Of a DNA stretch of 64,000 nucleotides, positions 49,011 through 49,298 are shown one piece after another. How positions within the stretch are numbered: position 1 is the stretch's first letter; every line of letters starts with the position of its first letter. This DNA is from Botryllus schlosseri (Eukaryota). The stretch lies in the NCBI GenBank assembly GCA_051294905.1, contig CM119372.1:14448001-14512000 (forward strand), in the 5' to 3' direction. Made by a program: the position numbers and the translations under genes. The notes under the pieces were generated by a model, which did no database searches, was not told the DNA's origin, and saw only the letters and a program-made list of their open reading frames with translations.

Positions 49011-49298
49011 TTAGTACGTTATGTCTTTCAACAGAGCATTTGAATTGCTATTTGAAAGTATCTGACAACTGTGAACTAATTCTTCAAGTTTGTTCATTGT
49101 GGCGTAACGACCATTTTTACGAATCCATAACTGTATCATTTGATATCGTTGCTCGGTTAAGTTATAGCAATCCATGTATTGACATTCGGCAATTTCATTG
49201 TCAGATAGCTCAAGTTTTTCGCGTGCAAACCTATACCAGTTCATCAGGTCAATTCGATCCATTATGACGTATATATCATTAGCAGTAATCTTTGACAT
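49011..49298 (-). CDS. Stand-alone death domain protein, 95 aa
   Basis: Pattern WYRFAREKLELSDNEI...LTEQRYQMIQLWIRKNGRYATMNKL matches Fas/TNFR1/RIPK1-type death domains. ATG at 49298. Confidence 0.85.
   Translation of the reverse strand: MSKITANDIYVIMDRIDLMNWYRFAREKLELSDNEIAECQYMDCYNLTEQRYQMIQLWIRKNGRYATMNKLEELVHSCQILSNSNSNALLKDITY

Follow-up and report, generated by a model that had tools for sequence, protein, structure and literature searches.

A short death-domain gene in a Maverick/Polinton of Botryllus schlosseri, with a caspase prodomain as its favoured origin

The window analyzed here is a stretch of 64,000 nucleotides from Botryllus schlosseri (assembly GCA_051294905.1, contig CM119372.1, positions 14,448,001 to 14,512,000 of the forward strand), and all coordinates below refer to it. 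It harbors a 17,175-bp element (32542-49716) with a small death-domain (DD) gene inside its right end. The ends of the element and the surroundings of the DD gene are laid out as follows.

32536..32541: left copy of the target-site duplication TACGTA, 6 bp
32542..32761: left terminal inverted repeat (TIR), starting AGTAGT, identical to the right TIR at 206/220 positions
48792..48797, minus strand: AATAAA, candidate poly(A) signal about 215 nt past the DD stop, with its function inferred
49011..49298, minus strand: stand-alone death-domain ORF, 95 aa, intronless (ORF list, Pfam, HMMER and fold searches)
49326..49429, minus strand: proximal upstream block of the DD gene and putative promoter, containing TATATAA (49347-49353) and a single TGACGTAA repeat; agrees with 46639-46742 at 102/104 positions
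49497..49716: right TIR, ending ACTACT
49717..49722: right copy of the target-site duplication TACGTA, 6 bp

The element is a Maverick/Polinton, as its AGTAGT/ACTACT ends and 6-bp target-site duplication are the hallmarks given for this group (PMC8097293, in part). Its TIRs measure 220 bp, a corrected figure. Six of the 14 mismatches between them are clustered in one 20-bp block (32622-32641), perhaps a sign of recombination between variant copies and not of age. A pair of outer 135-bp inverted arms (32036-32170 and 49717-49851) was considered as the TIR and rejected because like sequence recurs elsewhere in the window, the arms resembling repeats at 26630-27208 and 6272-6505. We infer that they belong to a host palindromic repeat with the element inserted at its centre. 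The flanks at 32036-32541 and 49717-49851 place the element in the TACGTA centre of this repeat, and a related 365-bp palindromic repeat lies directly to the left of the element between two further TACGTA copies (32165 and 32536). These are nested insertions at one 6-bp site, TACGTA.

The remaining genes and features of the element are given below.

32858..33376, plus strand: Bcl-2 family ORF with NWGRI and GGW motifs (Pfam Bcl-2 E=1.1e-20; best PDB matches Mcl-1/Bcl-2-like)
33878..34348, plus strand: ubiquitin-conjugating E2 ORF (Pfam and an HPN...C motif)
35383..35835, minus strand: adenain-like cysteine protease (H, D and Q-C motifs; weak match to ASFV S273R, E=0.0026)
35832..37109, minus strand: probable major capsid protein, from size and position (Pfam DJR-like only at E=0.14)
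39230..40237, minus strand: retroviral-type integrase with chromodomain (Pfam rve E=1.9e-13, Chromo 1.2e-9; motifs)
41122..41853, minus strand: A32-like packaging ATPase (Pfam Pox_A32 8.5e-10; motifs)
41747..45676, minus strand: element feature
46147..46635, minus strand: ORF162, no recognised family, first gene behind an internal copy of the DD upstream block
46639..46963, minus strand: internal mosaic copy of the right subterminal region, with five TGACGTAA repeats and the TATA block, before the run ORF162-ORF150-pPolB
47894..48445, plus strand: ORF183, no recognised family, oriented convergently to the DD gene; has candidate TATAAA and AATAAA signals of its own

Core genes of the element have open frames and keep their catalytic motifs. 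The protein-primed PolB returned no significant profile match and is identified through its motifs YDFES, YDANSLY, KLCGNSAFG and GDTDS; the protease, too, is identified through motifs. A single-sequence model of the capsid ORF was too poor for a fold search (pLDDT 35), and weak SidK matches (E of at least 0.03) were taken as chance. Scans against NCBIfam and PHROGs were uninformative, as was an ESM Atlas search with ORF183. The TATAAA of ORF183 lies 65 nt before its ATG, and its upstream repeats (47609-47890) have TTGCGCAA-like cores, unlike the TGACGTAA arrays.

The Bcl-2 ORF is the first ATG-ORF of at least 70 aa inside the left TIR and points inward. Its protein stops six residues past GGW, without a hydrophobic tail or membrane anchor, and a second ATG at codon 9, in ACCATGG context, is a candidate for the actual start. 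Between 33737 and 47526 the element also contains the ubiquitin E2 and three tRNA genes, for Ala, Pro and Leu. Outside it, a single open frame at 21603-23666 encodes 687 aa with PH and oxysterol-binding protein similarity and is either an intronless host gene or a retrocopy.

The DD frame on the minus strand runs from ATG to TAA over 95 codons, and ATG-ORFs of at least 95 aa arose in 3 of 200 mononucleotide shuffles of 48446-49500 (1055 bases). A preliminary description, made from the sequence alone, had read the product as essentially one death domain and proposed a profile search as a check. The profile search came out in its favor: Pfam Death (PF00531) matches residues 8-78 at E=3e-11 and 43.7 bits, above the cut-off of 22.6, and the scan of the 95-aa protein returned no other family at E<=1, hence no DED family. 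An AlphaFold2 model from an 11-row alignment is all helical with a mean pLDDT of 75; helices 5 and 6 run together and residues 85-95 are mostly below 50, a stretch beyond the end of the second known copy at residue 83. Foldseek against PDB placed death domains at ranks 1-11, at an E of only 0.01 and none at or below 0.001. The independent aligner VIA-align likewise placed death domains at ranks 1-6 (Fas, Z 9.3; TNFR1, Z 8.7, rmsd 2.4 over 77 residues), with MyD88 at ranks 20 and 42. The identity of the product as a death domain is secure, the formation of a sixth helix less so. It is a single death-fold domain without a protease part.

Does this ORF stand alone, or is it one exon of a longer spliced protein? 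Host DDs of the same subfamily are exons, as at locus L001 described below, and GT sites do occur past the DD stop (48866-48570). Within the ORF, however, no GT donor matches three or more of four further consensus positions, an in-frame stop lies nine codons 5' of the ATG, the ATG is in register with the start of caspases, and the AATAAA follows downstream. No caspase-domain sequence was matched anywhere in the window with seven caspases as queries; these DD-caspase queries were significant only at the DD (6/7) and never via their protease part. Moreover, vertebrate Mavericks, when intact, are reported to be intronless (PMC8097293, in part). We consider the exon reading very improbable, and the stand-alone reading of the preliminary description is supported: the sequence features argue for a gene in its own right. 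Two pyrimidine-rich AG sites upstream of the ORF lie before the TATA box, and a 57-aa plus-strand ORF overlaps the start of the DD ORF. There is no other ATG-ORF of at least 70 aa between the DD gene and the right TIR.

The preliminary description also cast the DD gene as the first gene inside the right TIR, mirroring Bcl-2 at the left, with the two TIR promoters firing a matched pair. The positional part of this holds in that both genes are terminal and inward-pointing, the DD ATG being 199 bp inside the right TIR and the first Bcl-2 ATG 97 bp inside the left. The DD gene's TATA segment, however, lies outside the TIR and has no left counterpart. Its TATATAA is 55 nt before the ATG, and the proximal 104 bp find nothing comparable before Bcl-2 (best ungapped match 41/104), yet recur at 46639-46742 (102/104), directly before ORF162, ORF150 and the polymerase. 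Common to both ends of the element are only the TIR and repeats of TGACGTAA, presumably an ATF/CRE-type site, which occurs 13 times in the window, counting both strands, against a mean of 2.9 and a maximum of 7 across 50 shuffles. With three of these repeats at each end and five at 46717-46927, the two terminal genes share an upstream repeat array that is partly within the TIR. A matched pair fired by two TIR promoters is thus not supported, since the 104 bp of the DD gene are held in common with an internal gene and not with the Bcl-2 end.

Because this block is absent before Bcl-2 and present before the ORF162 run, the DD gene more plausibly shares its regulation with the replication run than forms a pair with Bcl-2 through the symmetry of the TIRs. 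Transcription of the DD from the TATA and TGACGTAA block together with the replication genes is, judging from the arrangement of these sites, reasonably probable. In the internal copy just 31 nt separate the TATA from the first ATG of ORF162, which leaves almost no leader, so that a later ATG may be used or this copy may be weaker. In one history that would fit, a module of DD, ORF183 and tRNA was inserted behind the right TIR and the subterminal promoter became duplicated.

Relatives of the DD were sought by HMMER (phmmer) over 1.84 billion representative proteins, with 21 proteins found at E<=0.001. One of these, P0001 from ENA, is a second copy of the DD gene (83 aa), identical at 74 of the first 78 residues and with a different tail thereafter. 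It was also the only match in a word-index search at near lengths, and a word-index search of longer proteins with the single DD sequence returned nothing. Seven of the other 20 matches, including three of the top four, are caspases matched in their N-terminal region, with scores of 53.5 bits for P0002 (44% identity over residues 1-77), 52.4 for P0003 and 47.8 for P0005. Third among the non-self matches comes a sea-cucumber protein with several DDs, whose 49.3 bits are the sum over four stretches. Named caspase relatives include XP_039254012.2 and XP_039251078.2 of Styela clava and the caspase-2-like P0029 of Clavelina lepadiformis, and both catalytic motifs, [ST]HG and QxC[RC]G, are kept in 9/10 DD-caspases. 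TNFR-type DDs reach 41.1 bits at best, at least 11 below the two top caspase prodomains. Human DDs score lower by phmmer (TNFR1 26 bits, RIPK1 24.8, FADD 20.9, TRADD 13.9). The 34 PDB sequences with E<=10 include no MyD88/IRAK chain, and FADD, kinase or TIR-domain architectures do not occur in any of the 21 matches.

Several features of the alignments point the same way. The alignment of the element DD begins at its residue 1 and at the opening residues of P0002, P0003 and P0021, Met1 to caspase Met1. Of the 86 positions of the Pfam Death profile, the match reaches 70-73 in the two element copies (73 in the DD query), 66-75 in 9/9 DD-caspases with a Death match, and 83-85 in 4/4 TNFR-type DDs; three non-caspase DD proteins likewise end early (72-75). 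Maximum-likelihood trees group the element DD and P0001 with P0002, P0005 and P0010, with support of 94/95 (39 rows) and 92/95 (24 rows), just below the strict ('starred') mark of the tool. The smaller tree omits 13 further DD repeats, P0013 and P0014, and FADD, RIPK1, TRADD and MyD88 are in neither. A search with alignment A2 returned only caspases at E<=1e-5 (10/10; 7999 candidates scored), a circular result that is not independent support because A2 itself includes six caspase DDs.

Scores, start register and trees favor a caspase-prodomain origin, set against an AU test that does not reject a tree with the element DDs beside four TNFR-type DDs (p=0.241); this origin is accordingly favored, not proven. 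The search for the closest host DD that the preliminary description had proposed, run here on database proteins, thus places caspase prodomains nearest and leaves TNFR kinship unrejected. The best caspase is only 44% identical to the element DD and so would not be the true donor. No relatives were found in IMG/VR with the DD, the capsid ORF or alignment A2. By fold, BFVD offered nothing at E<=0.001 and no protein annotated as a DD among the 50 matches listed, and ESM Atlas returned generic Death clusters only (0.89-0.90).

Four metagenome loci, L001-L004, carry related DDs and were rejected as Polintons, as the DD alone was matched of 13 element proteins. In L001, an animal contig, the related DD exon is closed by a GTAAG donor at the site corresponding to G63, where the element gene reads straight through. 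The uninterrupted gene fits capture via mRNA, with the proviso that L001 is not from the donor gene, and we regard capture from a caspase mRNA as quite probable. The L001 exon (1056-1226, 40% identical) lies 4.3 kb upstream of an NB-ARC exon (5480-8116, same strand, E=1.8e-11); if the two form one gene, it could encode a DD-NB-ARC sensor and possible partner of DD-caspases. A short protein of Clavelina lepadiformis, P0014 (141 aa), is nearly identical in its DD to the prodomain of caspase P0029; it may be a DD-only decoy belonging to the host, or else its gene model is truncated.

We hypothesize that an ascidian-type DD-caspase gene was the likely source of the DD, through capture of its 5' end. 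Lacking the protease, it would be a decoy, likely jamming the DD platform that is predicted to activate DD-caspases. It would bind the caspase or its upstream adaptor or sensor homotypically, competing for or capping assembly, and together with Bcl-2 the net effect would be a cell kept alive during replication of the element. By analogy with INCA on caspase-1 and MC159 on caspase-8, we lean slightly toward homotypic binding of this competing or capping kind; that the captured prodomain acts as a COP- or vFLIP-like decoy on the DD-caspase platform is the reading we favor, at about even odds. INCA caps caspase-1 filaments and the vFLIP MC159 is described as anti-apoptotic (PMC11874512, in part). 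A complex prediction for the element DD with the P0002 prodomain scored 0.08, with controls not folded, and is evidence neither way. Mitochondrial apoptosis, which the preliminary description named as the target of the Bcl-2 partner, needs care as a term here because urochordates are reported without Apaf-1 and caspase-9 (PMC10959488, in part). The initiators described in Ciona are CARD and DED only (PMC10923776, in part).

The preliminary description saw the DD as a dominant-negative inhibitor of receptor-adaptor assemblies (FADD, TRADD, RIPK1, MyD88); extended to TNFR and IRAK, this version has it block extrinsic death or NF-kB signaling. A decoy role remains plausible; FADD, TRADD, RIPK1 and MyD88 are less likely as targets, since caspase prodomains score higher, and we consider this version unlikely. 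TNFR1, RIPK1, Fas and FADD DDs are indeed the best solved-structure matches by sequence and fold, but the PDB matches include no ascidian DD-caspase, so PDB rank says little, and MyD88 comes only 20th and 42nd by fold. Kinship with TNFR-type DDs, not rejected by the AU test, is set against their deficit of at least 11 bits and the want of receptor-adaptor architectures among the 21 matches. Ciona does have TNFRs and FADD (PMC10923776, in part), and in amphioxus caspase-1/2 has a DD-bearing prodomain that binds FADD2 through the latter's DD (PMC3196919, in part), so even a caspase-derived DD could still hit FADD.

Less likely again is a recently hitch-hiking or decaying passenger without selected function. 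The divergence of the C-termini after residue 78 in the two copies found, and the want of relatives in IMG/VR contigs, would suit a passenger. Against this, the ORF is open and, at 44% identity to its nearest host relative, keeps all seven columns that are invariant across 11 aligned DDs, which suggests long selection. The gene also comes with a TATA block and a poly(A) candidate of its own, and Bcl-2 and E2 accompany it as cargo. Least probable of the functional alternatives is an activator, in which the free DD would nucleate DD-caspase assembly, late caspase activity would serve protein processing or release, and Bcl-2 would control when this happens. Death-fold domains on their own can polymerise and cause death, and the isolated prodomain of amphioxus caspase-8 can promote death in HeLa cells (PMC3196919, in part); the KSHV vFLIP, too, became an activator of NF-kB (PMC11874512, in part). 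The upstream block in common with the polymerase run, however, suggests early rather than late expression, and the remaining cargo is pro-survival.

If the decoy reading is true, the consequences reach beyond this element. Polintons are rarely shown as active viruses and the host defences they meet are almost unknown. The cargo that a mobile element has stolen is informative in showing which defence it faces. A captured caspase prodomain names a specific target, the ascidian DD-caspases, in a group reported without the Apaf-1/caspase-9 apoptosome, and the protein could serve as a small natural inhibitor with which to probe the DD-caspase pathway. It also adds to the case that Mavericks face cell-death selection like real viruses. 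We tentatively suggest, and with rather less conviction than for the decoy itself, that a DD-only viral decoy taken from a caspase prodomain would complete the DED, CARD and PYD set of viral death-fold mimics, and that ascidian DD-caspases would form an undescribed anti-viral suicide pathway, working without Apaf-1 and caspase-9, that Polintons had to counter. Neither a Polinton death-domain gene nor a functional study of ascidian DD-caspases was found in the literature, with subscription papers (including those on tunicate caspases) and, for the Polinton gene, bioRxiv supplements lying outside that scope. Viral Bcl-2 proteins and death-fold decoys are well known as a strategy, and the surprise is moderate.

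Published Mavericks/Polintons, or adintoviruses, share with this element the TIRs, AGTAGT/ACTACT ends and 6-bp target-site duplication, along with polymerase, integrase, ATPase, protease, accessory regions at both ends and Bcl-2 cargo (PMC8502044 and PMC8097293, each in part). Homologues of Bcl2 and IAP have been published in adintoviruses (PMC8502044 and bioRxiv 10.1101/2024.03.25.586562, in part). What this element adds to the published descriptions, as far as the available portions of those sources go, is a death-domain-only gene and an arrangement of all core genes on one strand; the word 'death' is absent from the available supplement text of PMC8097293 and from part of the PMC8502044 supplement.

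CARD-only (INCA, COP, ICEBERG) and PYD-only proteins are alike in having a single death-fold domain that resembles a caspase prodomain, without the protease; they differ in that the domain here is a DD rather than a CARD or PYD, resides on a mobile element rather than in the host, and has an inhibitory function that is only proposed. CARD-only proteins arose by duplication of caspase-1. On the viral side, ranavirus vCARD and poxvirus M013 are death-fold decoys. The vFLIPs (MC159, KSHV vFLIP) are likewise virus-borne death-fold modules without the catalytic part (PMC11874512, in part), but have tandem DEDs and belong to large DNA viruses, whereas the element protein has one DD and comes from a 17-kb integrated element in an invertebrate chordate.

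Among cellular proteins with DDs and caspase domains, amphioxus has death-caspase models and DD-caspase architectures (PMC2575513 and PMC3196919, in part) and bivalves have caspases with a DD after DEDs (PMC7836458, in part). The ascidian DD-caspases resemble the element protein in an N-terminal DD that is 34-44% identical, in start register (P0002, P0003, P0021) and in the early end of the Pfam match, and differ in the linker and protease domain that the element protein does without.
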